From: a virus
Lineage: Duplodnaviria; Heunggongvirae; Uroviricota; Caudoviricetes
DNA length: 64,000 bases
Strand: one strand, 5' to 3'
IMG/VR virus record: IMGVR_UViG_3300009709_000002
Location: 1 to 64,000 of that record
Each line of letters opens with the position of its first letter. Position 1 is the stretch's first letter. A model generated the notes under the pieces. It did no database searches. It saw nothing but the letters and a program-made list of their open reading frames with translations, and was not told the origin of the DNA. A program made the position numbers and the translations under genes. This document shows positions 343 through 30,137 of the stretch, one piece after another.

Positions 343-852
343 TTACCAGCCTTGGAAGCCCTTGGTTTGTTGCGCGTAGCTGTCGTAGCCGGCGATGGCG
401 AACTGGCCGCCGACCGCTTGGTACGTTGCGTTGCTGTACGCGCTGGCCGACACGTTGGTGCCGAAGCCGCCCGAGGTCGAGCCGTACGTGCCGTTTGCCG
501 TGGCCGACGGGTTGTACGATTGGCCGGCGGTGCCGTACGAGTTGGCGGTCGAGGTCGAGCCGGTGTTGGTGTACGACGTGCTGCCCGTCGGTGCGAACGT
601 ATTGCCGGCGGTCGCGAAGTTGTTGCTCGTCGCGGTCGTCGTTTCGTACGAGCTACCGTAGCCGTTCACCAGCGTCGATGCTTGCGAACCGCCGGTGGTC
701 GAGACGCCGGTGTACGAAGTGCCGCCACCCGTGTAGACTTGAGCCGAACCGCCGGCGCCGAAGCCAGCTTGTTGAGCGGACGAGGAGCTACCAGCGAATG
801 CCGAAGCCGAGAACAGACCAGCCAGCGCGAGTGCAAGTGCGATTTTCTTCAT
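343..852 (-). CDS. secreted Ser/Thr/Gly-rich protein
   Basis: Signal peptide MKKIALALALAGLFSASAFA; low-complexity body; SD GGAG. Confidence 0.85.
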   Translation of the reverse strand: MKKIALALALAGLFSASAFAGSSSSAQQAGFGAGGSAQVYTGGGTSYTGVSTTGGSQASTLVNGYGSSYETTTATSNNFATAGNTFAPTGSTSYTNTGSTSTANSYGTAGQSYNPSATANGTYGSTSGGFGTNVSASAYSNATYQAVGGQFAIAGYDSYAQQTKGFQGW

Positions 853-980
853 GGTGAATCTCCAAATGGTTGAATTAGCGCGATGAGTTTGAATCGAAAT
901 GTACTCGCGCGATACATCTCGGGAAAACTAACTTTTTTGTCCTTCCTACCGAGTGTTTCTGTTTCAGTAGGATTAAGATT

Positions 981-1010
981 ATTATAACTAACTTCTTACT
1001 TCATGTAAAC
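981..1010 (-). promoter_or_regulatory. early-type promoter GTTTAC-N18-TATAAT
   Basis: T4-like early consensus. Same geometry recurs at 2919-2948, 3076-3105, 5426-5455, 9195-9224, 9676-9705, 10040-10069, 14679-14708, 22497-22526, 24815-24844, 30205-30234, 41186-41215, 44404-44433, 45828-45857, 53934-53963, 55976-56005. Confidence 0.85.
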
Positions 1011-1203
1011 CGTCTTTCCAACTTTTTAGCAACTTTTTAACCATTTTTAAAGTGTTTTGCCGTAGATGAACTTCTCATTCTAAAGCAACCTACTTTGAAC
1101 ATGATCAAGCTACCATAGATGTATAGTAATACAGCTCACGTCAAAAGTATACACATTGACCACTTTGGTGTATCTTTTTTGAAACAAATGGAGGCTAGAA
1201 CGT

Positions 1204-1230
1204 CAAAAGCTAGGAATTTCCTAGCTTTTG
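1204..1230. terminator. bidirectional intrinsic terminator
   Basis: CAAAAGCTAGGAATTTCCTAGCTTTTG. Confidence 0.75.
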
Positions 1231-1251
1231 AATGAACTTTGTGGGACTTTC

Positions 1252-1671
1252 TTAGATGGTAGAGACTATGAAGCACATGTCTTCATTGATCTTTTTGGAC
1301 TGCTCGAGGGCAGCTTTGATTGAAGCGAGGGTAGAAGTCTTAGGAGAGGAGTGTTCGGTTAGCTCAATAGTAGCATACTTGCTACCGTTTCTAACCGCCG
1401 CGAAGATGAGAGTAGAATTGACGCTGTCTTCATCAATTACTTGGATGAAACCTTGATCACCATGTTTGGTGAAGGCCTTGATCGCTTCCGTAACCTCAGT
1501 CACGGTGCTGGCGCTAATGTCATTTTGTAGCTCTTCGAGCTGCTCGGTCAGATCAGCATTTACTAATTGACCAAGTGAAAGCATTACCGCGTTAGACTCA
1601 TGCAATGCGATGCCGACTTTAGCGGCAAAGAATCTTGCAACTAGTTGCTGCTTAATTTCATGAAGCTTCAT
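1252..1671 (-). CDS. hypothetical late protein
   Basis: 139-aa ORF with ATAAATA box upstream at 1700-1706. Confidence 0.7.
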   Translation of the reverse strand: MKLHEIKQQLVARFFAAKVGIALHESNAVMLSLGQLVNADLTEQLEELQNDISASTVTEVTEAIKAFTKHGDQGFIQVIDEDSVNSTLIFAAVRNGSKYATIELTEHSSPKTSTLASIKAALEQSKKINEDMCFIVSTI

Positions 1672-5031: not shown

Positions 5032-5382
5032 CTATTCTGTAACTTCGGTGAGCTGGTTGCGTTCCTTGTAATAGCTCCACACGTATTCACCGTCTGAGCT
5101 ATATCCTGAAGGACCTTTCAACTGATAGATTCGACCAGACTTTGTCTTGCCGACCATCTTAGCTTCATCGAACTCTACGATCTGAGTCGAAACTCGACCA
5201 TTTCTGCCACCAGCTTCCGTTCCAACAAAGTATTCACCTTTGTCGGTCTTCTTAATCGTCCAATCATAAATGACGACAGAAGGCTGTTCTTCAATACTAG
5301 CTGCTGACCAGATAGAATTTCTGACCAAATGCAGAATCATCTGCTCAGCACTTGGCGAAATATTGTCTTGCTCTTCACTCAT
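5032..5382 (-). CDS. hypothetical protein
   Basis: 116-aa ORF with GRVST..TKSGRIYQLKG motif; early promoter upstream. Confidence 0.8.
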   Translation of the reverse strand: MSEEQDNISPSAEQMILHLVRNSIWSAASIEEQPSVVIYDWTIKKTDKGEYFVGTEAGGRNGRVSTQIVEFDEAKMVGKTKSGRIYQLKGPSGYSSDGEYVWSYYKERNQLTEVTE

Positions 5383-13415: not shown

Positions 13416-13989
13416 TTGAGATGAGAAAGTTGTTGGCTACAATCCAAGCGTGTCGATTTGCGTGAGCGTCGACCAGAGCGTTGTGCTGTTTGCCGGTTGC
13501 TTGTTCAAAATACTTACGACGTGAAGTTTGATAGTGAAACATCGTAGTGGCCGAAACATAATTCGTCCCTTCCGCTGCTGTACCACTGAGAATTGCATTT
13601 GTGTCAATGACACTTCCACGTAATCTAAGATCACGGAGAAGATAGTGAGGCTGAGGTGCGAGATTCTTTGGAAGATCTTCAAACAGCAAACCTTTGAAGA
13701 GCTCCCAGTCTGTGTGATAGTCGATGGAAATTTCCATCGCTTCATATGGAAGATTGACAAGCCACGTCCATAACGCGACAGAAGCTTTCATGAAAGTCAT
13801 GCCATACTTTTCATGGTTCAGTAATGGCACGATGTTTTCTTTGACGAAATCAGACTGAATTCTTGTGTCATAGTCGGTGATTTCGACATAGAACTCATGC
13901 TTTCCATCTTCAGTGACTGCACCGAATGAGATAAGTTGAGACCCGATGAAATCGGTGAACTCGGTGTCAATGAAGATCTTCTGCATCAT
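13384..13989 (-). CDS. DEDDh 3'-5' exonuclease
   Basis: FIDTEFT ... DW ... HNALVDA. Confidence 0.85.
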   Translation of the reverse strand: MMQKIFIDTEFTDFIGSQLISFGAVTEDGKHEFYVEITDYDTRIQSDFVKENIVPLLNHEKYGMTFMKASVALWTWLVNLPYEAMEISIDYHTDWELFKGLLFEDLPKNLAPQPHYLLRDLRLRGSVIDTNAILSGTAAEGTNYVSATTMFHYQTSRRKYFEQATGKQHNALVDAHANRHAWIVANNFLISNDTTPTCNQS

Positions 13990-16667: not shown

Positions 16668-19238
16668 TTAGCTCGTAAGGTGTGACTTCAGGTACTTAGA
16701 GATACGAGCATTGAAAGTCAAGATACCTTCTTCGTATTCGTCATCCTTGTGCATCTTCACCAGCTGTGACAGAACAGACTGGATACTCTTCTTGATGAGC
16801 TCCTTCGATTCATTCGACAGCTCCAGCAGCTTGATAGCGTGGATCATGTTGCGAATGAAGTTTTCCATCGTTGACACTTCTTCATCAACAAAGTGCTCTT
16901 GGTCATCCGTCAGTTCACGCTTCTTATACTGATGCTTGAAGATCTTCTCTTCAGCTTCAAAACGCTTTTCAACCTGCGAAAGCAAGAATTCCGTGAGGTC
17001 TTCCTTAAACTTGTGCGGATCGTTGTTGCGCATGTAGTTCATGAACTGTGGTTCGTCAGCCAAATTCTTCGATTGGTCATCGAAATACTTCTTGAGAACA
17101 TCACCAAGTTGTTCCGTCTTTGCCTTCGTGTAGAAGATACCTTCACCGAAGTTCACAGCATCGCTGTGCATGATCCAGTTCTTGACATCGCCAAGGAATT
17201 CAGGAGAATCAGCGCCTTGCTTCTTCAGCACGAACGACATCGTCGACTTGAACGAATCAAATACGACTTCCTTCAGATCATGATCAAGCTTTGTCATGTC
17301 TTCCTGAGTGTAGTTCGACGGATCGAGCTTTTTGAGCTTACGTTTCAGCGTCATCTGGAAGTGCTCAGCCGAGTTTGAGAACCAGTCTGAGTATTCACGT
17401 GGCGACATGTATATGTCTTGGTTACCAATGTCCAAGTAGAACTGACGAGTCTTTGGATCGCCTGACTTGTTCTTGAACTTGTCAGCAAAAGCAACGACGA
17501 AGTTGTAAAGTGATTCCTTGATCTTATCGTCAACGCCCTTGATCTTCGGCATCAGCTTGTCTTTAATGTACGTCTTCGTGTTCGCCCATGAAGCTTTGGC
17601 GTCGATAACGTCCACAACGTCGGACATGTGCTGTGTCAGCGGAATAGCACCATGGTCCTTCGGGTTGATAGCGCCAATGACGATCGAACCTTCTGGGAGC
17701 TTGTAGTTGCTACCACCAAATTTCTTTTCCAGGATAACCTGACGAAGTGCATTGAACACGTTCGGCTTAACACGATTGAATTCGTCGAAGAAAATCAGGT
17801 ACTTCCATTCTTTCTTCTTGTACTCAGCCGCGCCCATCGCCTTACCCTTTTCAGTCGTAAGGTAGTGCTTGTCAGCTTCCTCTGCATCCTTCATGATTTC
17901 AAGGTACAGCTTTGGTTCCGAGAAATCGGTCTCGATGTTGTCGCCCTTACCTTTGCCCTTCTTTGACAGCGGAATACCAGTGACATCTTCAGCATCCAAC
18001 TTCGAGCACTCGATGTAGATATAGCGAAGGTCAAGGTCAGTTGCTACACGAGCAGCTTCCGAAGTCTTACCAATACCTGGCATTCCTGAAACAATTGGCA
18101 CGTAAGTACGAGTGCCACCCAGCTTCATCTTCTGCTGAATCTGGTGCTCAAGAGTCGTGCGCCATTCTGTGTCATCATGCGTGTCATCAGCCGTTTGACG
18201 GAAGTCAGACGTTTCTTCAATCAGCTCCTCAACCGCCTTCAGCACCTTGTTGTACAGTGATGAGTGTGCGCCAGTCAGATAATTCTTGAAGTTCAGCTTG
18301 ACGTTGGTCATCAGACCTTTAGCGTCCTTCTGATCCTTTGGAGGAATCGAAGCGTTGATGTACGTGATCAGCTGTTCCCAGCGACGTGGCGAAGTACGAA
18401 CTTCAGCGTCGACGTCATTGTTGTTCAAGTGCTCTTCATCAAGCATCTTGTGGAACTTTTCGATAACTTCCTTCTTGATCGGGTTCTTGTTGTAGCGCTT
18501 GTCGTTGCTGTACTTATTGACGAGCCACGAGAACCAGTCTTCCTTGTTAGGAGTACCGAACTCAATTTCCTTGAAGTCATTGTTCAGCGAAATGTCGGTG
18601 TCAACACCTTCGTCGTTCAAGTTCGAAGCGTAGATGACGTAGCAGTTCTCTGGAATGTCATGGTGACCGAGCTTGCCGTTCAGGATACCACGAAGCATAT
18701 TACGAATACGAGTCGATGACTGACGGAAGTATTCATCCAGGAACAGAATCGTGTCGAAGTGCTCACGAACCTGCTTGAAATCGTCTGGGATTTCTTTCTC
18801 AGAACCGTCGAATTCTTCGAAGATCGAGATCAGGTCTTTTGGACCATTGTAGATCGTCTTCAGATACTGATCATCCGGCAGCTTCTTCAATCCCTTAATC
18901 TTCGAGAACAGATTCGAGTCAGCGAGGACGATCTTGTAGTCGGAGTCATCAAGGTGCTCAACTTCACGCTTTTCTGTGTTGTTGGCAGGATTGAAAACGA
19001 TGAACGGGATGTTGATGATGTGTTCTTCGGTGATGTGCGGAGCTTCAATCGTGATCTGCTCGAAGCCCATAAGCGTCGAAAAGAACTTGATGAAAGATGT
19101 CTTACCAACACCAGGATCACCTGAAAGGAGAATACCGGCTTGGCCTGTACCATCCTTCTTAGTGCGCATATTTGCGAGGATCTGAGTAATGATCTTTACT
19201 CGTTGATCAAATGATGCGCTTTGTGCGTTAAATTCCAT
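16668..19238 (-). CDS. MoxR-like ATPase with two tandem AAA+ modules
   Basis: GDPGVGKT/LFLDE/SPRRW and GMPGIGKT/IFFDEFNR/SPRE. Confidence 0.88.
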   Translation of the reverse strand: MEFNAQSASFDQRVKIITQILANMRTKKDGTGQAGILLSGDPGVGKTSFIKFFSTLMGFEQITIEAPHITEEHIINIPFIVFNPANNTEKREVEHLDDSDYKIVLADSNLFSKIKGLKKLPDDQYLKTIYNGPKDLISIFEEFDGSEKEIPDDFKQVREHFDTILFLDEYFRQSSTRIRNMLRGILNGKLGHHDIPENCYVIYASNLNDEGVDTDISLNNDFKEIEFGTPNKEDWFSWLVNKYSNDKRYNKNPIKKEVIEKFHKMLDEEHLNNNDVDAEVRTSPRRWEQLITYINASIPPKDQKDAKGLMTNVKLNFKNYLTGAHSSLYNKVLKAVEELIEETSDFRQTADDTHDDTEWRTTLEHQIQQKMKLGGTRTYVPIVSGMPGIGKTSEAARVATDLDLRYIYIECSKLDAEDVTGIPLSKKGKGKGDNIETDFSEPKLYLEIMKDAEEADKHYLTTEKGKAMGAAEYKKKEWKYLIFFDEFNRVKPNVFNALRQVILEKKFGGSNYKLPEGSIVIGAINPKDHGAIPLTQHMSDVVDVIDAKASWANTKTYIKDKLMPKIKGVDDKIKESLYNFVVAFADKFKNKSGDPKTRQFYLDIGNQDIYMSPREYSDWFSNSAEHFQMTLKRKLKKLDPSNYTQEDMTKLDHDLKEVVFDSFKSTMSFVLKKQGADSPEFLGDVKNWIMHSDAVNFGEGIFYTKAKTEQLGDVLKKYFDDQSKNLADEPQFMNYMRNNDPHKFKEDLTEFLLSQVEKRFEAEEKIFKHQYKKRELTDDQEHFVDEEVSTMENFIRNMIHAIKLLELSNESKELIKKSIQSVLSQLVKMHKDDEYEEGILTFNARISKYLKSHLTS

Positions 19239-20433: not shown

Positions 20434-21012
20434 TTATGCAGTCACGAGTTCAAACTTCTTACCAGCCTTATCGTGCCGCTTCCACTTAATCTTGAAAGAA
20501 TCGGAATTGATTCCTCCAAACATCTCAGCGTTAGCGTGCAGTTCACATAACGTAGTTAGCCAAAGTGTAAATCCGAGCGGGTGAGTAAAGTATGGTTCCA
20601 GTTCTTCACCACGAAGAGTATGAAACGTCATATCCAAGCGAATCAGCTCAGCAGCGAGGAAGTTGTTGCTGTGCTGGAGAAACTGCCTGTATGAAGCTTC
20701 AGCGTGACCAGGAAAATGTTGCCGTCCATCTTCATCCACCGTGCGGCAGATGTGCTTACCACAGTCATGGTAGATTTGATAGAGCCTGATCGTTTCTTCA
20801 TTCGGAAGAGTGTGCTTAAAGTTCTCCCAAAGTTCTTGAATGTAGCTCGGCAATCTCCATTCAGAAGTCAGTGGGCTGCGATATTCAAGATGGTCAAAGA
20901 GCTCCATCCACTTTTCATGCACAGCTTGACCATGTTGGAGCATGTTCATATTCTCGAACTGGAAACATTCTTTCATCGGTTGTTCGAGCTTGTCAAAGTT
21001 TACCTACGTCAT
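20434..21012 (-). CDS. HD-domain phosphohydrolase with in-frame TAG at codon 3
   Basis: QHG..V, YHDCGK, HF.GHA motifs; SD AGGAG-7nt-ATG ACG TAG in frame with ATG 20976. Confidence 0.8.
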
Positions 21013-21013
21013 T

Positions 21014-21529
21014 TTAAATCTCCTTTAAAGCGGTTAATTGTTTACGAAGGTCCGAGTACTCTAGTAACATCCTGTACCCATCTCCTTTACTCCAAGTCAC
21101 CGAACTTGGAAGTCGGTAACGATCTTCAGCAATACAACGCATACATGAAGCTGGAACTGCTGTACAATCTCCGGCGTGCATCTCAGAGTTTTCAATCTCA
21201 GGTCTAAGATGCTTGGTGAAGTAATCACCATCTGTCTCAAACCACTCTACATCATCAGGCCTGTCCATCATTTTCTCGATGCGAATAATCACCTCGAGAG
21301 AATCCTTCTTCAACTGCTCAAAGTCTTTATTTGACGTGATAAGCGGCTTATAATCAGGATCATTGAGTGTCTTAACTAGGTCTATCAAATCGAGAAAATC
21401 ATACTCTAATTCCTCCCAGACCGTGCGCATATGAGCTAGTTTATGATCTTTCTCATTCAATTCTGGAGCTTTTGGCCCTAGAATGGCACGAAGCTCTGTC
21501 ATTCTAGCTTCAATTTCTTCTTTCGTCAT
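21014..21529 (-). CDS. hypothetical protein (H.GDCT..P.SC.RC motif)
   Basis: Start reassigned to MTKEEIE (SD GGAG). Confidence 0.75.
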   Translation of the reverse strand: MTKEEIEARMTELRAILGPKAPELNEKDHKLAHMRTVWEELEYDFLDLIDLVKTLNDPDYKPLITSNKDFEQLKKDSLEVIIRIEKMMDRPDDVEWFETDGDYFTKHLRPEIENSEMHAGDCTAVPASCMRCIAEDRYRLPSSVTWSKGDGYRMLLEYSDLRKQLTALKEI

Positions 21530-21530
21530 C

Positions 21531-22055
21531 TTAGGCTCCGTATTTCTTTTGAAGATCTTTAAGAAGTTCACGATCTTTCGCCTCCTGTTCTGCTTGAGCT
21601 TTACGAGCCAGAGCTTGCGCCCGAAGTCTGCCCAACTCCTTATCTTTCTCTGCTTCTTTCGTGAAAATCTCTTTAAGCTGTTCATTCGTCATGTTAAGCC
21701 ATGACAGATGGAAGAAGTTTTTGTAGTCCTTGTTGTCGTAGTACTCTGAACCGTGATCACAGCCAAGAGCATATTCGCCTTGGAGCAGCAAGTATTCACC
21801 ATCAATACCGTCGTACGTGAGCTCTGTGAACGTGAGCCAGTTGCGGTAGTTGTTGTACCAACCAAACTTACCCTCGATCTTCAAGCCGTGTTCATGCTGA
21901 ATACGAGTGCGCATCTTTGAGATTTCATTGATGCGATGTTCGATACCAGACTTGAAGTCTGCAGCAGCTTCAGTGATCTGAGCGTGGAGCTGGAGCTGCT
22001 CAGCTGAAAACTGGTCTGAGTTAAGAGCTTCTTGGATTTGTTCGAATGCGTTCAT
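21531..22055 (-). CDS. hypothetical protein
   Basis: Start reassigned to MNAFEQI (SD AGGAG). Confidence 0.75.
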   Translation of the reverse strand: MNAFEQIQEALNSDQFSAEQLQLHAQITEAAADFKSGIEHRINEISKMRTRIQHEHGLKIEGKFGWYNNYRNWLTFTELTYDGIDGEYLLLQGEYALGCDHGSEYYDNKDYKNFFHLSWLNMTNEQLKEIFTKEAEKDKELGRLRAQALARKAQAEQEAKDRELLKDLQKKYGA

Positions 22056-22066
22056 GGTAGTTCTCC

Positions 22067-22441
22067 TTAGGCGGCTTGAGCGATTTGCTCGTAGGGGTTT
22101 CTCCAAAGGCGGTATTTCCGCAAATGGATACGCTGTTCATCGAGGATTGGAAGTGTGGCAAACGCCGTGTAGCTAGGCTCGTAACCAAGGTGTGAATCCG
22201 GTTCATAAAAGATCTCGGACACAATGCCTTTTTCCTGAAGAGCTGCACGAGCTTTCAGAAGCTGAGCTTCACTTTTTACTTGAAGGATAATGATCGATGG
22301 CGTCTGCATGTATTGTCTGGATTGCCCAGCCAGCAGCCCTGCCTGAAGAGAACCGTGATTCGATTGTGCGAGTTGTTGGGCCAAGGGAAGGTCCGTCCGC
22401 ACGAACACGTAGCAGTAAGTTTTGTCGTGAATCTACAACAT
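22067..22441 (-). CDS. PTH2-like peptidyl-tRNA hydrolase with in-frame TAG at codon 3
   Basis: YVFVRTDL..AQQLAQSNH, IILQVKSEAQL, FYEPD, TAFAT.P; SD AGGAG-7nt-ATG TTG TAG in frame. Confidence 0.8.
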
Positions 22442-22527
22442 GATTAAGCTCCTTTAAAGTTTGTATTTATCGATCAAATTTATCAACCGATAAGACATTA
22501 TAAACCATCTTATGGTAAAAGTAAACA

Positions 22528-22553
22528 ACAAAGGCGACCGAAGCCGCCTTTGT
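22528..22553 (-). terminator. intrinsic terminator
   Basis: ACAAAGGCGACCGAAGCCGCCTTTGT. Confidence 0.7.
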
Positions 22554-22568
22554 TTCAAACCTTGAAGC

Positions 22569-23411
22569 TTAGATCTTCACATCGTGCGAACCGAAGGCGA
22601 GCTTCGATACAGCATCCAGGAAGCCGCGCGAGATCCAGAAAACGCGATCGCAGATAGTGCGGATGACACGAGCCAGGAGCAGGTGGAGAACCGTGATCGG
22701 CCATTCCAGCGCCGTTGCTGTGAGCATCGTCTTGCAGTGAATCGCTTTCGGCGGCAGCATAGCGTGAAGGATAGCATCCATGCGAGCCAGACCCTTGTCA
22801 GCATCCTTCACTGCGTTGGCCATCAGGCTCGAACGATCGGAGCTGGTGATCGAGGTCATCGCGTCGGCGATCTTGGCGCTGCCGTAGATGGTGCGCGAGT
22901 TATCAGCGATAGCCTTGATCTGGATGTACTTCTTCACATGGTCTTGCGACAGGCCGTACTTGGCGAGATTGCCGACTTCGATGTTCTCGTTGTTCGGATC
23001 GTCTTCCGTCGGAGTACCGAGCTTGGCGATGATCGACTCAGCGAAGGCATCCCAGTTGGTTTTCACCGAAGCGATGACTGCATCTTGGTAGCGATCTTTC
23101 ACGTGCCAGCTGTAGAACACCCAGTTCACGAAGGATACGACCAACCCAGCGACGGCGTAGTAGGCGAGCAGTTGAATCGTGCCGAGGACGACGCCGTGAG
23201 AGTGAATTGCAGCGCTGATGTAATCGCGACCGACGAGTCCGGCCAAGATCAGAGTCGGTACGAAGGCAGCGGTTGCTCCACCGTACGAGTGGTCATCGAA
23301 CAGGTTGACTGCGATGATGAGTAGGATGACCATGATGACGAGGGCGGCCCATCCGAAAAATGCGAATCCGGAGATGAACGCGAGCCCTGCTCCAAACAGT
23401 TCTGCTATCAT
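22569..23411 (-). CDS. multi-pass membrane protein
   Basis: Several hydrophobic segments. Confidence 0.8.
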   Translation of the reverse strand: MIAELFGAGLAFISGFAFFGWAALVIMVILLIIAVNLFDDHSYGGATAAFVPTLILAGLVGRDYISAAIHSHGVVLGTIQLLAYYAVAGLVVSFVNWVFYSWHVKDRYQDAVIASVKTNWDAFAESIIAKLGTPTEDDPNNENIEVGNLAKYGLSQDHVKKYIQIKAIADNSRTIYGSAKIADAMTSITSSDRSSLMANAVKDADKGLARMDAILHAMLPPKAIHCKTMLTATALEWPITVLHLLLARVIRTICDRVFWISRGFLDAVSKLAFGSHDVKI

Positions 23412-23469
23412 TGTTAACTTCCTTTTACTAGGTGAGAGAGATTGGGCGCTAGCATCAGCACCCGGATGG

Positions 23470-24402
23470 TTACTGCTTGTGGGCGTTTGCCTTGATTGCG
23501 GCGAGGGCAGCCGGGTGGATCGGCCACTTGACTTGCTCGATGCTCAGCGGATCAACCTGCTTCCACTTGGGATGGCCGGTCATTTCCAGGTCAGGCTCCT
23601 TCTTCACGATGCACGTGACGAGCTGAGAGATTTCCTTCGCCATGACAGGGTTTTTGTAGTCATATGTGGCGAGGATCGATTTGACAGCGTAGGTCTGCAC
23701 CGGCGTGGTTTGCCAAGCGTAGATGCCTTCTGGCACCGAGGCGCGGATGTAGAAGTCATCCAGTGCCGGATTGCTGAGAGAGATCATCTTCACGACGCCC
23801 TTGGCGCTGGCACCGAGATCGGCAAGCAGCTTCACCGGTGTACCGGCGACGACGATCATCGCGTCATATTGACCACTGACGAGACCAACCACGGACTGAG
23901 CCGGAGCTTGCTCGATCGAAGTCCAGCGAATACCGGTTTTCGACTGAATGATGTTGGCCGAGACCCAGTTGCCGGAGCCTTGCTGTCCGATGACGACCTT
24001 CTTGCCAGCCAGGTCGGCAAGCTTGTTGATGCCGGAACGCGTGTTGACGACGACGTTGATTTCTTCGTTGTACAACGGGAAGACCTGCTTGATCTTCGAC
24101 ATGCTCGTCGGATCATTCAGGTTCTTGTAGATCAGCGCATCTTGTTGCACGATGCCGTACTGCACCTTCGGATCGGAGAAGATGCGATCGAGGTTGCTGA
24201 GTGAACCAGCCGACTCGTACACACTGATGTTGATCATCGGGCATTCACGCTTGATGTCTTGCGCCATCGCGTAGTACGTTGCCGTGGATGAGCCGGTGCT
24301 GATTCCAACATCAGCTTTCGCTGCCGACGCAACGCTTCCCAAAAACGAGCCGAGCATCGCTGCGGCTCCGATCACTACTACACGACGAATATTCATTCGC
24401 AT
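23470..24402 (-). CDS. TAXI-family TRAP solute-binding protein
   Basis: STGSSTATYY, SAGSLSNL, VQQDAL, PLYNEEI, DLAGKKVVIGQQGSG, P.HPAA. Confidence 0.9.
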   Translation of the reverse strand: MRMNIRRVVVIGAAAMLGSFLGSVASAAKADVGISTGSSTATYYAMAQDIKRECPMINISVYESAGSLSNLDRIFSDPKVQYGIVQQDALIYKNLNDPTSMSKIKQVFPLYNEEINVVVNTRSGINKLADLAGKKVVIGQQGSGNWVSANIIQSKTGIRWTSIEQAPAQSVVGLVSGQYDAMIVVAGTPVKLLADLGASAKGVVKMISLSNPALDDFYIRASVPEGIYAWQTTPVQTYAVKSILATYDYKNPVMAKEISQLVTCIVKKEPDLEMTGHPKWKQVDPLSIEQVKWPIHPAALAAIKANAHKQ

Positions 24403-24439
24403 TTCACACTCCCTAAAGGATTCGGAAAGATAGGCCGAG

Positions 24440-24766
24440 TTACATCTTGCCCATGGATTTCATCTTGTCGATGGCGCTGTCGCCGTCGGACGGTGCAGCT
24501 TGCTGGATTTGCGGTTGCTGCGACGCCTGGTATTGCGGAACAGCTTCTTGCTGCGGCTGCTGGACGACAGGTGGTGATACAGGCTGGATGTTTGCCGGTG
24601 GCGGTACTTGCGACGGCTGTTCCTGCGGTGTGATGTCGACCTGCGGAGCATCTTGCGTCGGGTGCTTCAACTTATAGTTGTCATACCCGTAGTTCGCTCC
24701 GTATCCCACTACACCTACGACTGCTGCGATCAGCAGTAACTTAGGAAGCGTTTTGATTCTTGCCAT
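24440..24766 (-). CDS. membrane-anchored Gln/Pro-rich protein
   Basis: N-terminus MARIKTLPKLLLIA similar to that of the SBP-OmpA protein. Confidence 0.75.
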   Translation of the reverse strand: MARIKTLPKLLLIAAVVGVVGYGANYGYDNYKLKHPTQDAPQVDITPQEQPSQVPPPANIQPVSPPVVQQPQQEAVPQYQASQQPQIQQAAPSDGDSAIDKMKSMGKM

Positions 24767-24850
24767 TGCAGTCTCCTACAAAAGTATTAAAGAGAAATTC
24801 TTGACGACAGATACATTATAAACTATCGTCAATATCCGGTAAACACATTC

Positions 24851-25663
24851 TTAAAGAGTTTTGAACAAATTGAGGAGCTCTTTCATCAAAGGATTGTAGT
24901 TTGGTTGGTGACGAACGTCATCATGCCAAGCCAAATCCATGTCGATCAAGTTGTACATCGCCTTGATCGTCGCACCTTTGGAGTTACCTTGCTCATCACG
25001 ATCACGGCCAAGAACCCAGATGCTGTCAGCGATAGCGATCGCCGAGCCGATGTCGTGAGTTGTCAGAATGATGGTATTGAGCTCATCAGCAGTCGAAACT
25101 TCATGAATAAGAGTGCTCACCTCATCCTTAGCGATGATGTCCAAGCCTGAAAATGGTTCATCCATCAGCAAGAAGTGAGTGCTACACAAAAGCTGTTGCA
25201 TGATCGCTACACGTTGCCGTTGACCACCTGACAGTTCACCTGGATAATTGTTCTGCTTTTCAAGCATCCCAAAACGCTCAAGCATCTTCAATGCTTCTTG
25301 TTTCGGATCTTTCAAATCATGACCTGCCAACTTCAAGTTGCTGATGATAGTGCGATGGTTCAACAGCGGGTAGTGTTGTTGAACAACACCAACTTGACCA
25401 GCTTGAACTTCCTTCTCTGTTCCATTCAGCTTAACTATTCCAGCTGTAGGCTTTTGCAACCCAGCGATGCACCGGAAAAGCTGGGTCTTCCCGATACCTG
25501 ATGGACCGAGAAGCGCCACCACCTGGCCCTGCATCATGTTTGGGCGAACGATATTGTCGATCTTAAGGTTGATGTTGTTCAAGATCGGACGATCATACTC
25601 AACATTCAGATTTTCAACCGTTAGGAGCCGCTCGGCCAGCTTGTATTCAAATGTAGATGACAT
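24851..25663 (-). CDS. ABC transporter ATPase (TauB/SsuB-like)
   Basis: GPSGIGKT, LSGGQRQR, LLMDEPFSGLD, TH. Confidence 0.93.
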   Translation of the reverse strand: MSSTFEYKLAERLLTVENLNVEYDRPILNNINLKIDNIVRPNMMQGQVVALLGPSGIGKTQLFRCIAGLQKPTAGIVKLNGTEKEVQAGQVGVVQQHYPLLNHRTIISNLKLAGHDLKDPKQEALKMLERFGMLEKQNNYPGELSGGQRQRVAIMQQLLCSTHFLLMDEPFSGLDIIAKDEVSTLIHEVSTADELNTIILTTHDIGSAIAIADSIWVLGRDRDEQGNSKGATIKAMYNLIDMDLAWHDDVRHQPNYNPLMKELLNLFKTL

Positions 25664-25674
25664 GATTAGCTCCT

Positions 25675-26457
25675 TTACTTTTTAGCTACTTCAGCGTACG
25701 GGCACAACAGCTTCTTCAAATATTGCAAAAAGATATCCTGCAAGATGCCGTACGTAAGAATTGTTACCTGAATTGCGAAGATATTGCTGAGAATCAGGTG
25801 ACGGTCTTGGTTTAGCAGCATGGCGCCGATACCGCCTTGCGACCTGGTCAAGCCTTCAACCATTGACAGTAGTGTCCAACCCATCGCAGCATTTTGACGA
25901 ATCGCATCGAGTACCTTGTCGATCCGACCTAGTATCACGATCTCCCAAGTTACTCGCCAGCCCTTGAGCTTGAGGGTTCGTGCGTAGTCGATCTCAGCTT
26001 GCTTAATGGTATCATTTTCGCCAAGCAGTGACGTGACCAAGAAGACCGTCATGCCGAACACGAGTAGGCCAATTTTTAACTCAGTGGCTCCGTTTGTCCA
26101 GATCGTGAAGAGATAAGTCAAACCTGCGAAGCCGAGAAAGCGCAAACCTGATACCGCCGAAGCGATTGGCTTGAAGAAATTTGAAGTTGAGGCGTACATC
26201 AAAGTCATCGAGATCGCTGATGAAATTCCGAGCGAGATCAAGATGGTCTTAATGGAGCTGAACAGTTCAGGCAGCAGGCCCGAGTGAAGAGCGAGAACGT
26301 TCCACGCCTTCATCGTTTCGAGCGGAGATGGAATCGTTTTGTTCGGTGACAACCACCAGAAAGCGAGAAAGGCGACGAGCTGAACAATGGCGAGCAACTT
26401 CATCAAGTTGGTGTTCAGCTCTTTGAACGGCAAAAACAAAGCCTTGAGATATTGCAT
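25675..26457 (-). CDS. ABC transporter permease (TauC/SsuC-like)
   Basis: IPSP, EAA-like IDYARTL, W..L..VE, GGIG. Confidence 0.88.
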   Translation of the reverse strand: MQYLKALFLPFKELNTNLMKLLAIVQLVAFLAFWWLSPNKTIPSPLETMKAWNVLALHSGLLPELFSSIKTILISLGISSAISMTLMYASTSNFFKPIASAVSGLRFLGFAGLTYLFTIWTNGATELKIGLLVFGMTVFLVTSLLGENDTIKQAEIDYARTLKLKGWRVTWEIVILGRIDKVLDAIRQNAAMGWTLLSMVEGLTRSQGGIGAMLLNQDRHLILSNIFAIQVTILTYGILQDIFLQYLKKLLCPYAEVAKK

Positions 26458-26588
26458 TGCTTATCCTGAAAATTGGATTGCCGGACTATCTTTGTTAGAT
26501 TAGTCCGGCAATGATATGGTTTTGGATCATGGTACCGAGAGGAGGAGAAGCTACGGCGCGACCCGAAGTTCTCCTCCAACACCTCCGG

Positions 26589-28361
26589 TTAGTTGGAGGT
26601 GTTCAGCAGCAGGATATCCACACGGCGGTTCTGTGCACGACCCGAAGCTGTGCTGTTATCAGCGACCGGATCAGCATCACCGAAGGCACGAGTACGAACA
26701 CGATCCAACGGGAACGAAGACGAGGCGTTAGCCAGAATCCAAGCCTTAACAGCTTCGGCACGAGCCTTGGACAGTTGCAGGTTCGAATCCGGGTTGCCGA
26801 CGTTATCGGTGTAGCCGTTGATCTGGACGGTCAAGCCCGAGACAGCCAACTGGTTGAGCAAGTCATCCAGCTGTTCGGTTGCACCAGCAGCGAAGGTAGC
26901 CTTGCCAGTTTGGAAGCTGATGTTCCAGGACTTCTTGGCGAAGGTTCCGGTCACCGCGGCGGCCGAGCTGTAGATCGGTGCAGCAGGTTGAGCGAGCGTA
27001 GTTGCCTTGCTGAGCAGCGATTGCAGGTACGTGGTGTTGACGACCGACTCATACGGCAGCAATGTCGGGAAGTCATCCGGGTAGAGATCATGATCGATCT
27101 TGCCGAAGACGTTGTAAACACGTTTGTACAGGTTGTCGTTGCCGTTCAGGCCGAACAAGAAGGCATTGTCTGCCAGACCGCTCGTCGTCGAGCCACCGAG
27201 TTGCACAGGTTGACCAGTCTTGTCATTCTCCACCGTACCGAGGTAGTATTTCTTCCAGTACGGACCGGTTTGTTCCTTGTACACCTTGGCCGAGACTTCC
27301 GAGCCGAGGGTCAAAGCCTGATCGTTCTGACGAACTTGTTCACCACCTTCAAGCGCAGCGGCCAGCATGTTCTGGACGTAGCCGGGATTTGCAGCATCCC
27401 ATTGCTTGTTGCCGATGATGATCGCCGGCATCTGGTAGATGTATTCCTTCGTCGACGCGATCGCTACGACGCCGCCCTTTTCCTTAGCAACCTTCACGTC
27501 GCCAGGAGTCCAGGTTGCCGTGCCGTTCACCGTGATGTTACGCTTTTCACTGGTGAGCTTTCCGTTCTGAACGACCGGACGATTTTCGCTGTAGCCTGCG
27601 ATGAGCTTCGCATCGGCATCCGTGAAGGCATCCACGCCGACGAAGTTCATTGCATCCGGATCATACGTCTTGAGGTCCGGGTTAACGCGGATTCCATTGT
27701 CTCCGGCCCACTTCACACAGATGTCCCAGTCACCGTCACGGATGACTGCGGCGATGAGCGAACCCTTCGCTTTCGAAGGATCGACCTTCACTTCCGGCGG
27801 CAGCATGCACTTGTCTTCGCCACGGGAGTAGCCTACCGAGCCGATGACTTCAGCCGATTGACCGAGCTTCTGGAGAGCAGCTTCGACCGATGCAGCGTAT
27901 TGCGGGAAACCATCACCCATGATCGAGACGAAGGCGGCGCCATCGGTCGGATTTGCAGTACCAGCCGCGACTTGCTTGGCGAAGGCGACCTGTTGAGCGA
28001 TCATCTGCGAGTAGTCATCCTGGCGTTCCAGGGTGAGCTTCACGCCGTGCTTGTCCATCAGGCTGCCCGGCGCAGTGGTGACGTCGCCGTTAGCGAACTG
28101 GAGTCCCATGGTTGCGTTCCACGGGAGAACCAGCATCTTCGCGGTGTAAGTTCCAGTAGCTGCGGCGATGTTGACGGCCGAGGTTCCAGTGCCGGCGCCT
28201 TGCGAGGCCGTCGGGAGATCAACAGCGGTCGGGACCGAAGCGGCTTGAATCGGCTTGCTATTGAAGTAGCCGCTATCGTATGCCTTGTTGACGGCGAAGG
28301 CGACGCCTCCGACGATCAACGCGATAACGAGAAGTTTCGGTGCAGTTTTAAGCTTTGCCAT
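26589..28361 (-). CDS. periplasmic binding protein fused to C-terminal OmpA domain
   Basis: GYSRGEDK PBP region; GYTDNVG, LSKARAEAV, NRRVDI. Confidence 0.9.
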   Translation of the reverse strand: MAKLKTAPKLLVIALIVGGVAFAVNKAYDSGYFNSKPIQAASVPTAVDLPTASQGAGTGTSAVNIAAATGTYTAKMLVLPWNATMGLQFANGDVTTAPGSLMDKHGVKLTLERQDDYSQMIAQQVAFAKQVAAGTANPTDGAAFVSIMGDGFPQYAASVEAALQKLGQSAEVIGSVGYSRGEDKCMLPPEVKVDPSKAKGSLIAAVIRDGDWDICVKWAGDNGIRVNPDLKTYDPDAMNFVGVDAFTDADAKLIAGYSENRPVVQNGKLTSEKRNITVNGTATWTPGDVKVAKEKGGVVAIASTKEYIYQMPAIIIGNKQWDAANPGYVQNMLAAALEGGEQVRQNDQALTLGSEVSAKVYKEQTGPYWKKYYLGTVENDKTGQPVQLGGSTTSGLADNAFLFGLNGNDNLYKRVYNVFGKIDHDLYPDDFPTLLPYESVVNTTYLQSLLSKATTLAQPAAPIYSSAAAVTGTFAKKSWNISFQTGKATFAAGATEQLDDLLNQLAVSGLTVQINGYTDNVGNPDSNLQLSKARAEAVKAWILANASSSFPLDRVRTRAFGDADPVADNSTASGRAQNRRVDILLLNTSN

Positions 28362-28376
28362 GATTTGCTTTGGTCC

Positions 28377-29390
28377 TTATTGCTTGTTGAAATACTTGGA
28401 GAAATCGGTCTGCTGAGTGGCGGTGATACCAGGCACATATTCAGCAGTGTGTTGTTCGAGCATGACGCGTTTTTGGTCGCCGAGCATGATCGAGTCAGCC
28501 TTCGACTCCCAGGCCTTGATACGTTCGAGAGCATCCGCTTCATACACGCCATTCGTCAGGTCGAGAGTGTCGATAAACGATTGCGAGCTGTCCATGAAGT
28601 TCTCGATCTCGCCGAGCTTGTTGCCGTAGTCGGCGGCGGTGTATTCCATCGCCTGATTGAAGAGCTCCCGAGCATCGTCATCACCTTTCAGGATAGCACG
28701 AGCTGCTTTCATCGCCGACCAGGAGGCGCGGATTGCGATACGTTCGCTTTCCTTGACTTCCACTTCGCTCTTGATGTCCTCGATCGTGACTTCCGAAGCT
28801 TCCTTGTACTTGTTCAAGGCGCGGTAGTGCAGACGAAGCGTGGACAGAAGGTTGCCGAGAGTCTCGTTGGATTTCTCCAAGCGACCGTTCTTACGGGAGT
28901 TCAATGCGAAGGCACCGACTGCACCTTTCTCATGAGCGACCTTCGCCATGGTGAGCGCTTGCTTGCTTTGCGCATCATTGTCGGCGATCTTGCGTTCGAG
29001 AATCTTGATCTGGCCGTTCAACTTCGAGATGCTATCGGTGATCAGAATGAGTTTCTTCTGAAGATCTTCGATGTATCCCTTCATGATGCCGATCGGATCG
29101 ATTTCCACGAACGTACCGGTGATGGCACGCATCGCCGATTTGAACATGTACTTCGCCAGATTCTGGAACTTGCTGTTGGTTGCGATGTACAAAATCGCCG
29201 CCAAGATGCCGCCCATGATCGCCAAGGTGATGCCTTTGCCCAGGATGTCGATGCCGGTGTTCATCACACCGAGAATCGTATCACCGAACAGCTTGATGAG
29301 GAAGAATGCACCCACACCGATTGCTGCGAGTGTTACCATCCCCGTGGTGCCTTCGGGACGTTCCCAGAAGGACTTTACTTTGTTTTCCAT
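28377..29390 (-). CDS. membrane-anchored coiled-coil (PspA-like) protein
   Basis: Two TM segments then DPIGIM and a long coiled coil. Confidence 0.7.
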   Translation of the reverse strand: MENKVKSFWERPEGTTGMVTLAAIGVGAFFLIKLFGDTILGVMNTGIDILGKGITLAIMGGILAAILYIATNSKFQNLAKYMFKSAMRAITGTFVEIDPIGIMKGYIEDLQKKLILITDSISKLNGQIKILERKIADNDAQSKQALTMAKVAHEKGAVGAFALNSRKNGRLEKSNETLGNLLSTLRLHYRALNKYKEASEVTIEDIKSEVEVKESERIAIRASWSAMKAARAILKGDDDARELFNQAMEYTAADYGNKLGEIENFMDSSQSFIDTLDLTNGVYEADALERIKAWESKADSIMLGDQKRVMLEQHTAEYVPGITATQQTDFSKYFNKQ

Positions 29391-29408
29391 GATTTCCTCT
29401 ACAGATGT

Positions 29409-30137
29409 TTACTTAGCCGCTGGCGCGCCTACAGTTGAGAGCAGCTGCTTCTTTGCAGCGAGCTCGTTCTTGACGAAGTCGACAGAGAGACCGAAGCGGT
29501 TCTCGACCGAGCCAATGTCTGCTTCAGCTGCTTGAGACTGCATAAGCAACTGATTTGTCTCAGTGTCATTCTGAGCTGCTTGCTCTTGAAGACGCTGAAT
29601 TTCTTGCTGACGTTGTTCGATCTGCTGCGCGATCTGCACATTTTGATTGTGCAATTGATCGGCACGCTGCTTCGGTGCATCGACTTCAGTACGACGTCGT
29701 TGATCCGAGACGCCTTTGAACAGAACTCGTTGGCCTTCGACGTCCGCAATGTGCATGTCGATGGAACCGCTGATTTGCTCGAAGGTGCGCGAACCGCTCT
29801 TGAGAACTGAGGCGATCGCGGCACGAAGACGCATCGTTTCATCCGGGATGATGGACTCGAACGTCGCGGCTTGCTCCAGAAAAGCAGAGTAGGCGCTCGG
29901 TTTCTTGGCCACGACATCGCGTAGCTGTGCGATCATGTCCGGATCCGGAGCCATCGAGTTGATGGGCAGCGGAGCGATGTACTGAACTGGTTGACCAGGG
30001 ACAGCAGGTGCTGCCATCGCCTGTTGTTGTGGCTGAGCCGGAGTCTGGGCCGCCGCGGGCTTTTCATCTGTTTCTACTACCAAGCTCGCGATGGAAGACA
30101 GCCAGCTTTTGCCTGCTTTCTTCTCTTGGTTTGACAT
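29409..30137 (-). CDS. coiled-coil protein, first gene of transport operon
   Basis: Start MSNQEKK (SD AGGA); promoter at 30205-30234. Confidence 0.75.
   Translation of the reverse strand: MSNQEKKAGKSWLSSIASLVVETDEKPAAAQTPAQPQQQAMAAPAVPGQPVQYIAPLPINSMAPDPDMIAQLRDVVAKKPSAYSAFLEQAATFESIIPDETMRLRAAIASVLKSGSRTFEQISGSIDMHIADVEGQRVLFKGVSDQRRRTEVDAPKQRADQLHNQNVQIAQQIEQRQQEIQRLQEQAAQNDTETNQLLMQSQAAEADIGSVENRFGLSVDFVKNELAAKKQLLSTVGAPAAK

Follow-up and report, generated by a model that had tools for sequence, protein, structure and literature searches.

On the minus strand of the window (the whole stretch of DNA analyzed, 64,000 nucleotides of a 360,227-bp phage genome), a four-gene unit opens with a predicted PTH2-fold gene and closes with a predicted HD-fold gene, and both of these genes carry an in-frame TAG at codon 3. 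The features of the unit are as follows.

22527 to 22554, minus strand: a terminator-like hairpin (12 pairs) with a T-rich tail that closes the upstream unit.
22497 to 22525, minus strand: a sigma-70-like promoter, TTTACT-17-TATAAT, matching the consensus at 10 of 12 positions and the likely start of the four-gene unit, inferred from the consensus match only.
22449 to 22459, minus strand: CTTTAAAGGAG, a Shine-Dalgarno (SD) block 7 nucleotides before ATG 22441.
22433 to 22441, minus strand: ATG TTG TAG, the start codon, Leu codon, and in-frame amber codon (TAG 22435 to 22433) of the PTH2-like gene.
22067 to 22432, minus strand: the PTH2-fold protein, 121 codons after the TAG, plus stop.
21531 to 22055, minus strand: a gene of no assigned function (174 amino acids) with a normal SD-ATG start, for which no relatives were found.
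21014 to 21529, minus strand: a gene of no assigned function (171 amino acids, with a Cys-rich stretch) with a normal start.
21020 to 21030, minus strand: the second copy of CTTTAAAGGAG, 7 nucleotides before ATG 21012.
21004 to 21012, minus strand: ATG ACG TAG, the start codon, Thr codon, and in-frame amber codon (TAG 21006 to 21004) of the HD gene.
20434 to 21003, minus strand: the HD-fold protein, 189 codons after the TAG, plus stop.

The observation made in the preliminary description, that two genes of one operon share an SD-ATG-NNG-TAG opening, was confirmed. The 7-nucleotide spacers between the SD block and the start codon are CTTAATC for the PTH2-like gene and ATTTAAA for the HD gene, the TAG is followed by ATT CAC GAC AAA ACT TAC TGC TAC GTG TTC and by GTA AAC TTT GAC AAG CTC GAA CAA CCG ATG, respectively, and both ATG codons are in frame with the downstream domain. 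The 11-mer CTTTAAAGGAG occurs exactly twice in the complete genome, only at these two starts, whereas a given 11-mer is expected about 0.17 times on both strands. The next canonical start codons are GTG 22408 and ATG 20976, and neither is preceded by a GGAG-like motif. In the AF2 model of the PTH2-like protein, the first strand comprises residues 5 to 12 after the TAG (T-Y-C-Y-V-F-V-R), and a start at GTG 22408 (Val9) would cut it, as had been proposed. Similarly, a start at ATG 20976 would remove most of helix 1 (residues 4 to 12, pLDDT about 95) of the HD model. RNA folding around the TAG codons gave z-scores of −1.07 and +0.43 against shuffled sequences and no sign of a structure that would stimulate read-through.

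The genome as a whole uses the standard code, and TAG is a rare stop codon within it. The codon at 5034 to 5032 on the minus strand is a TAG that closes a 116-codon open reading frame (ORF), and 15 of 238 stop-to-stop frames of 200 codons or more end in TAG. ORFs of 100 amino acids or more cover 86.7% of the genome under code 11, and reading TAG as sense adds less coverage than reading TGA or TAA as sense. A genome-wide scan for early stops returned only four SD-ATG-short-TAG openings. The two outside the unit, at 144417 (plus strand) and 325578 (minus strand), have an ATG at or within three codons after the stop, and we take them to be ordinary starts. A codon usage score intended to find internal TAG junctions had little power, as the two TAG-containing genes themselves scored near zero, and we rely instead on ORF coverage and the early-stop scan.

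The predicted PTH2-like protein gave an AF2 model with a pLDDT of 91. The top 10 Foldseek hits to this model were all Pth2 structures (TM 0.67 to 0.78, probability 1.00), with archaeal and human Pth2 proteins (for example, 2zv3, 1wn2, 1xty, and 1q7s) at TM 0.72 to 0.78. The R-x-D-L and Q-x-x-H-A motifs of Pth2 are shared. However, the sequence fell below the curated cutoffs, with PF01981 at an E value of 2.3e-4 and 21.8 bits against a gathering cutoff of 23, and NF003314 at 15.7 bits against 126. Mutagenesis of Sulfolobus Pth2 reportedly places the catalytic Lys in the GK loop. The profile alignment puts a 2-residue gap at the GK loop of 24bt and 2zv3, such that the phage family appears to lack the loop and its Lys, and an invariant Glu-Pro stands in place of the D-A-G motif. 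Invariant Q19 and E77 are candidates to replace the catalytic Lys and Asp. Peptidyl-tRNA hydrolase activity is therefore not assured for this protein.

The HD protein was modeled with a pLDDT of 96, and the H…HD…H…D…H pattern characteristic of HD metal ligands (H79-D80, H100, D124, and H128) is invariant in an alignment of 23 sequences. No Pfam family matched at an E value of 0.01 or better, and no NCBIfam model matched at threshold, the HDIG model TIGR00277 giving an E value of 0.057 and 13.3 bits against 27.6. The protein did match phrog_14850 (E value, 4e-54). By structural alignment (VIA-align), the best match was to residues 248 to 448 of 3wfo_A, a CC-adding tRNA nucleotidyltransferase (Z 13.2), followed by bacterial GlyRS chains 8ie2_H and 7yse_C (Z 10.8 and 9.0), all of these being HD-type domains that bind tRNA acceptor ends, and then by SpoT (8.2) and small alarmone hydrolases (7.6 to 7.3). 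HD-domain structures, also including PhnZ, PPX/GppA, and PgpH, dominate the matches listed down to a Z of about 8, although for helical proteins a Z near 13 is not far above background. Unlike these domains, the phage protein is a free-standing 189-amino-acid polypeptide, and action on tRNA 3′ ends is plausible but inferred from these matches.

To determine whether the early stops are conserved, we compared the unit with those of related phages. Nine cultured large phages with 31 to 63% protein identity to this one keep an in-frame TAG at codon 3 or 4 of the PTH2-like gene, opening with ML*, MT*, MSH*, MTH*, MAH*, or MAQ*, and the stop is always TAG. The Met-Leu-TAG-Ile opening is shared with RsoM2USA and with locus L069 (L numbers denote individual relative loci), with a synonymous TTG/CTG change in the Leu codon. 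Of 50 distinct relatives in IMG/VR, 37 have an early in-frame TAG behind a start codon and one more has TGA, and the stop sits at codon 2 to 9 in nearly all PTH2-like genes. The HD gene often has an early stop as well. A Met-x-TAG or Met-x-x-TAG type of opening, with TAG at codon 3 to 5, occurs in the HD genes of RsoM2USA, XacN1, and 11 IMG/VR loci, and in the Mimas/Eneladus phages the TAG is at codon 47, inside the domain. XacN1 has an HD-PTH2 fusion that opens MK-TAG, and L114 does the same. Complex prediction for the HD and PTH2-like proteins gave no verdict and is not weighed either way, which leaves these natural fusions as the only hint that the two proteins work together. The 171-amino-acid gene of the unit is homologous to RsoM2USA_92, which likewise lies between the PTH2-like and HD genes, and weak matches to it occur at the corresponding module in L093, L114, and L123.

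Broken genes or sequencing errors are effectively ruled out by this conservation, as the same stop lies at the same place in independently sequenced cultured phages and dozens of metagenomic contigs, the rest of each gene is intact and under purifying selection, and both AF2 models are confident. Codons just after the TAG differ synonymously between phages (GAC/GAT, AAA/AAG, ACT/ACA, and TAC/TAT), as does the Leu codon before it, so both sides of the stop are translated. These data also bear on a minigene or upstream-ORF model, in which ATG-NNG-TAG would be a two-codon ORF ending in termination or peptidyl-tRNA drop-off, and the enzymes would be made by reinitiation at or after the stop. The layout resembles that of the lambda bar minigenes (AUG-AUA-stop), a link between minigene drop-off and a Pth-like product is attractive, and in L099 the TAG is followed directly by ATG with no suppressor tRNA within 10 kb. 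However, bar minigenes are stand-alone and act through drop-off of peptidyl-tRNA(Ile), whereas here the frame continues into conserved residues, belonging to strand 1 or helix 1, directly after the stop. Codons after the TAG in the relatives include AAT, AAC, ACC, GTT, and CAC, which are not start codons, and they lie about 16 nucleotides from the SD. RsoM2USA has no canonical in-frame start within the 22 codons read after the TAG, and reinitiation at the codon-47 TAG of the Mimas/Eneladus HD genes would lose the conserved HG motif. We consider this model unlikely, although drop-off is not excluded.

A search of the full genome for a tRNA(CUA), which had been suggested beforehand as a check, found one at 277432 to 277506 on the minus strand, outside the window and about 255 kb from the unit. 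It has a CUA anticodon, a CUCUAAA anticodon loop, and an encoded CCA end and scores 56.4 bits on the Rfam tRNA model, although its anticodon stem has only three Watson-Crick pairs, flanked by G·A and C·A mismatches. It is most similar, but weakly, to the Val, Asn, and Ile tRNAs of this phage, and acceptor stems and discriminator bases differ between phages, so the amino acid identity cannot be called. A BLAST search with the suppressor tRNA of phage ME3 found only tRNA-Trp and tRNA-Gln look-alikes and not the other suppressors, and a pattern scan plus ARAGORN was used instead. All 10 cultured phages checked carry a tRNA(CUA), and in many phages it sits beside the gene on the same strand. Of the 38 IMG/VR loci with an early stop, 33 have the matching suppressor tRNA within 10 kb, compared with 5 of the 12 loci without one (Fisher P = 0.0036), and two more of the stop-bearing contigs have it about 40 kb away. 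In L126, both genes have TGA in place of TAG, and the fetched locus encodes two tRNA(UCA) and no CUA tRNA. The base after the early stop is a purine in 35 of 38 loci, compared with 18 of 35 TAG codons that end long ORFs in this genome (P = 1.5e-4); in Escherichia coli, a 3′ purine reportedly favors amber suppression.

There are exceptions to the co-occurrence. One complete relative (genome G003, locus L079) keeps both TAG codons but has tRNA-Arg(CCG) at the syntenic site, and our pattern scan found no CUA tRNA in that genome. The five loci that lack the early stop but have a suppressor tRNA nearby indicate that the tRNA is not explained by the early stop alone. Loci L108, L112, L116, and L134 have a CUA tRNA upstream of a PTH2-like gene with a long N-terminal extension and no TAG in it, for which we have no explanation. 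In bacterial genomes, only four loci were found, of which three have neither an early stop nor a suppressor tRNA, and one, on a 3-kb contig, has a CUA tRNA beside a gene without the early stop. The loci that keep a suppressor tRNA without the early stop, and G003, leave room for a passive throttle, in which the TAG would only lower expression to the few percent given by near-cognate host tRNAs, both enzymes perhaps being harmful if abundant, and the phage tRNA would serve another purpose. A weak ribosome-binding site would do the same job, yet both genes have strong SD sites, and the stop is TAG in 37 of 38 loci with the one exception changing together with the anticodon. The throttle thus appears improbable.

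The interpretation offered in the preliminary description was only partly supported. It held that the stops are not chance mutations, that the genome is not recoded as a whole, that the products are a PTH2-like hydrolase and an HD protein with possible roles at tRNA ends, and that both need UAG read-through, and these points stand, with the reservation on Pth activity given above. Its main inference, that the phage senses RF1 depletion or inactivation and makes the enzymes only when UAG termination fails, was not supported; a suppressor tRNA had been listed only as one possible trigger. UAG is read by RF1 only, early stop codons and very short nascent peptides terminate poorly, and the phage also meddles with termination through a short RF1-type gene with a conserved in-frame TGA in the same genome, all of which would fit a sensor. 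However, the genome carries its own tRNA(CUA), the tRNA co-occurs with the early stop across phages, and in L126 the stop is TGA, which RF2 reads, paired with tRNA(UCA), so the design follows the anticodon and not RF1. No RF1-targeting gene was identified, and we regard the sensor as unlikely.

We propose, with a probability of roughly 0.7, that the two UAG codons are read by the phage's own amber suppressor tRNA(CUA). In this view, the unit may be transcribed on its own from the promoter-like site, ribosomes would start at the strong SD-ATG sites, and at codon 3 RF1 and the suppressor tRNA would compete. If RF1 wins, only a dipeptide would be released, and if the tRNA wins, the full PTH2-fold or HD-fold protein would be made, such that the amount of both enzymes would follow the ratio of charged tRNA(CUA) to UAG termination activity in the infected cell. 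The analysis establishes the early stops and their conservation, the presence of the tRNA and its co-occurrence with the stops, a single joint switch of stop and anticodon, and the two folds as modeled. That the tRNA is expressed, charged, and reads these codons is inferred from sequence, as are the residue inserted (Gln is a guess from G73 and the CUA anticodon), the catalytic activities, and the purpose. A strong suppressor would also read the phage's own TAG-terminated genes, which speaks against the proposal, as do the mismatches flanking the anticodon stem, the location of the tRNA about 255 kb from the unit, unlike the cassette form in many relatives, and the exceptions to the co-occurrence. 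As to why these two enzymes should be controlled in this way, our preference, held tentatively and as less likely than not even within this reading, is that the pair acts on tRNA 3′ ends and is tied to suppressor activity, either as a feed-forward cleanup of by-products of UAG read-through or as a brake that acts on the suppressor tRNA itself. A bolder version, which we consider unlikely, is a self-referential controller of UAG decoding, in which the enzymes would deacylate or trim the 3′ end of the suppressor tRNA, read-through would make the enzymes that limit read-through, and, together with the UGA-containing RF1-type gene, the phage would run its own set point for stop-codon reading in the infected cell.

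The arrangement can be compared with known recoding systems. In stop-codon-recoded phages (TAG read as Gln, code 15), a phage-encoded tRNA(CUA) is likewise proposed to read in-frame UAG in phage genes inside a standard-code host, with expression of those genes depending on the tRNA (Borges et al., bioRxiv 10.1101/2021.08.26.457843). There, in-frame stops are spread over many genes, mostly late and lysis genes, and coding density collapses under code 11, whereas here the genome is standard code, only these two genes had a strong SD-ATG-short-TAG opening in our scan, and the same two gene families are affected in distant phages. In prfB (RF2) autoregulation, an early in-frame UGA with a +1 frameshift also makes synthesis of a translation-related protein depend on how well that stop is read (Atkins et al. 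2016, PMC5009743). Here there is no frameshift, the PTH2- and HD-fold products are not release factors and do not themselves read the stop, and a dedicated tRNA, not a low release factor level alone, is the likely effector.

We found no description of this design in the literature. Many large standard-code phages carry amber suppressor tRNAs whose purpose is unexplained. The XacN1 study read through 18 amber stops in silico and reported that target genes could not be identified (PMC5852040); annotated genes were extended past their terminal amber stops, an approach that a stop at codon 3 would presumably escape. The RsoM2USA study only guessed at several potential target genes (PMC8504454). 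The present analysis names concrete, conserved targets, a PTH2-like gene and an HD gene with stops at their first codons, and also explains a gap in public records, as no gene is annotated under the PTH2-like match in RsoM2USA, fHe-Yen9-04, or BF, and the annotated gene is truncated in ME3, XbC2, CBB, GAP32, and Arash. If the two early stops work as proposed here, they constitute a natural, gene-specific, tRNA-operated translational switch that could be useful as an orthogonal expression gate, and they offer a handle on how phages manage tRNA damage and termination.

The first 64 kb described here belong to a complete phage genome of 360,227 bp with direct terminal repeats, 46.9% G+C, 51 tRNA genes, and a tmRNA gene. 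Four co-directional genes lie on the minus strand of this region behind a terminator-like hairpin and a promoter-like site, and the first and the fourth of them carry an in-frame TAG at codon 3. The module and its surroundings are as follows.

22554-22527 (-), terminator-like hairpin
22525-22497 (-), promoter-like site, TTTACT-17-TATAAT
22449-22459 (-), CTTTAAAGGAG, 7 nucleotides before the start codon of the first gene
22441 (-), ATG of the first gene, the PTH2-like gene, which reads ATG TTG TAG ATT CAC GAC AAA
21014-21529 (-), gene for a 171-amino-acid protein with a Cys-rich stretch, between the PTH2-like and HD genes
21020-21030 (-), CTTTAAAGGAG, 7 nucleotides before the start codon of the fourth gene
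21012 (-), ATG of the fourth gene, the HD gene, which reads ATG ACG TAG GTA AAC TTT GAC
22569-30000, block next to the module with higher G+C (0.53 to 0.54, against about 0.45)
22569-23411 (-), gene for a 280-amino-acid protein whose N-terminal half is hydrophobic
23470-24402 (-), gene for a TAXI/NMT1-like periplasmic solute-binding protein (PF16868, E value of 6.5e-26)
16668-19238 (-), gene for an 856-amino-acid protein with two P-loop motifs (GDPGVGKTS and GMPGIGKTS), just downstream of the module's neighborhood

The observation made in the preliminary description, that both genes open with the same block and an amber codon at the third position, held in full, and its coordinates, codons, and spacings were all right. 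The 11-mer CTTTAAAGGAG occurs only at these two gated starts in the whole genome, and the two middle genes start normally. The block is not conserved in the phage RsoM2USA, and it could come from a local copy of the start region or be a shared operator. The two proteins encoded in the adjacent G+C-rich block are possibly host-derived auxiliary genes.

A tblastn search with the post-TAG product of the first gene found relatives in 30 phage records, and in several of these no gene was annotated under the match. Reading of those loci showed why, as an in-frame amber codon follows the start.

Table. Opening of the PTH2-like gene in related phages.
Phage: opening
RsoM2USA: Met-Leu-TAG-Ile-Ser-Asp-Lys
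fHe-Yen9-04: Met-Ser-His-TAG
BF: Met-Thr-His-TAG
ME3: Met-Thr-TAG
XbC2: Met-Ala-His-TAG
CBB, GAP32: Met-Ala-Gln-TAG
Arash: Met-Leu-TAG

Every stop in these phages is TAG, and the residues directly after it (D/E-K-T-W/Y-x-Y-x-F-V-R-T-D-L-P) are conserved. Between the phage described here, RsoM2USA, and the locus L069, the codons after the TAG differ synonymously, and the Leu codon before it is either TTG or CTG, so both sides of the stop are read as protein. The stops are not errors, nor is the genome recoded as a whole. Open reading frames of 100 amino acids or more cover 86.7% of the genome, and reading TAG as sense adds less coverage than reading TGA or TAA as sense. TAG ends 15 of 238 long frames. 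A scan for a Shine-Dalgarno sequence, an ATG, one to five codons, and a stop followed by a long open frame found only these two convincing cases.

Relatives of the HD gene lie next to the PTH2-like gene in most of these phages. The RsoM2USA gene opens Met-Lys-Ser-TAG, and XacN1 has a single HD-PTH2 fusion gene that opens Met-Lys-TAG. The Mimas/Eneladus phages have a TAG at codon 47, inside the domain, whereas ME3 and Arash have no stop. The gate at codon 47 bears on an alternative in which the start, the short frame, and the stop would act as a minigene, with re-initiation behind it. Re-initiation at codon 47 would lose the conserved HG motif, so the common principle is a need for amber read-through and not a minigene. 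The non-start codons after the TAG and the conserved residues found there also weaken that alternative, which we consider unlikely. The 171-amino-acid protein encoded between the PTH2-like and HD genes may be a third conserved member of the module. It is 38% identical to RsoM2USA_92, which holds the same position, and weak matches lie at the module in loci L093, L114, and L123.

A tRNA with the anticodon CUA was identified by ARAGORN at 277432-277506 (-), with an encoded CCA end and a CUCUAAA loop. It scores 56.4 bits against the Rfam tRNA model, although its anticodon stem is weak, consisting of three G-C pairs between two mismatches. All ten cultured phages checked carry a tRNA(CUA). In ME3 it lies about 450 bp upstream of the gene, and in Mimas/Eneladus phages it lies about 3 kb downstream.

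To examine the association more widely, a profile search of IMG/VR was carried out, which returned 63 loci, 50 of them distinct. Of these 50, 38 have an early in-frame stop behind a start codon with no start in between, and the stop is TAG in 37 and TGA in 1. The matching suppressor tRNA lies within 10 kb in 33 of the 38 gated loci, against 5 of 12 ungated loci (P = 0.0036), and two more gated contigs have the tRNA about 40 kb away. Locus L126 has TGA in both the PTH2-like and the HD gene, together with two tRNA(UCA), the stop and the anticodon having changed together. The base after the gate is a purine in 35 of 38 loci, compared to 18 of 35 for ordinary terminal TAGs of the genome described here (P = 1.5e-4). 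There were, however, exceptions. One complete Mimas/Eneladus-like genome (G003, locus L079, IMGVR_UViG_3300042923_000569) keeps the TAG in both genes but has a tRNA-Arg(CCG), at locus positions 13905-13980, where its relatives have tRNA(CUA), and a pattern scan of that genome found no CUA tRNA. Several ungated loci still have a suppressor tRNA nearby. In loci L108, L112, L116, and L134, a CUA tRNA lies 160 to 720 bp upstream of a PTH2-like gene that has a long N-terminal extension and no in-frame TAG.

The predicted fold of the post-TAG PTH2-like protein has a pLDDT of 91 and matches archaeal and human Pth2 with TM scores of 0.72 to 0.78. However, the sequence scores below the Pfam cutoff and lacks the GK loop, which in Pth2 holds the catalytic Lys. 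Invariant R12, D14, Q19, Q23, H26, and E77 mark a conserved site. The HD protein is predicted to fold with a pLDDT of 96, and H79-D80, H100, D124, and H128 are invariant. Its best structural match is residues 248 to 448 of chain 3wfo_A (Z score of 13.2), a CC-adding tRNA nucleotidyltransferase. GlyRS chains come next, followed by PhnZ, PPX/GppA, PgpH, SpoT, and small alarmone hydrolases. Both proteins plausibly work on tRNA 3' ends; whereas the gates, their conservation, and the accompanying tRNAs are observed directly in the sequences, this role is inferred from the folds and from the natural fusion.

The simplest account, inferred from sequence alone and to which we assign a probability of about 0.70, is a competition at codon 3 between RF1 and the phage tRNA(CUA). 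In this view, the yield of both enzymes would follow suppressor activity. The interpretation offered in the preliminary description was only partly supported. It had correctly set aside genome-wide recoding, but its main proposal, that the gates sense a loss of RF1, is weakened by the presence of the tRNA and by the switch to TGA with UCA, and it now appears unlikely. A passive throttle is not excluded, although we regard it as improbable. The purpose of the gating could be clean-up coupled to read-through, a brake on the suppressor, or timing.

Iyer et al. noted PTH2 in jumbo phages without mentioning a stop or a suppressor (PMC7824862). The XacN1 authors could not find targets for its two CUA tRNAs (PMC5852040), and the RsoM2USA authors only speculated (PMC8504454). 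Work on recoded phages concerns genome-wide code change, and our literature searches found no paper linking Pth2, a suppressor tRNA, and an in-frame stop.

Another gene with an in-frame stop is present in the same genome, outside the window. A short RF1-type release-factor gene lies at about 344783-345455 (-), corresponding to positions 784-1455 (-) of our locus L135, and scores 77.6 bits against the Pfam RF-1 model. It has no domain 1, has an RVPPTE motif and a GGQ motif, and carries an in-frame TGA at codon 36, at the position of a conserved Trp in RF1. Of 80 IMG/VR relatives, 78 keep that TGA in frame 0 with both sides conserved, and 73 have it at exactly the same position. Two of those contigs also carry the amber-gated PTH2/HD module. 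The genome has no tRNA(UCA). Atkins et al. state that an early same-frame UGA is unknown in sequenced bacterial RF2 genes and that the counterpart with UAG in RF1 genes is also unknown (PMC5009743). No Pth1 gene (PF01195) was found in the genome, but a phage-encoded tmRNA with the tag AASNDSSYALAA is present at 86729-87083 (-). With the RF1-type gene and the PTH2-like gene, the phage carries several termination or rescue parts.
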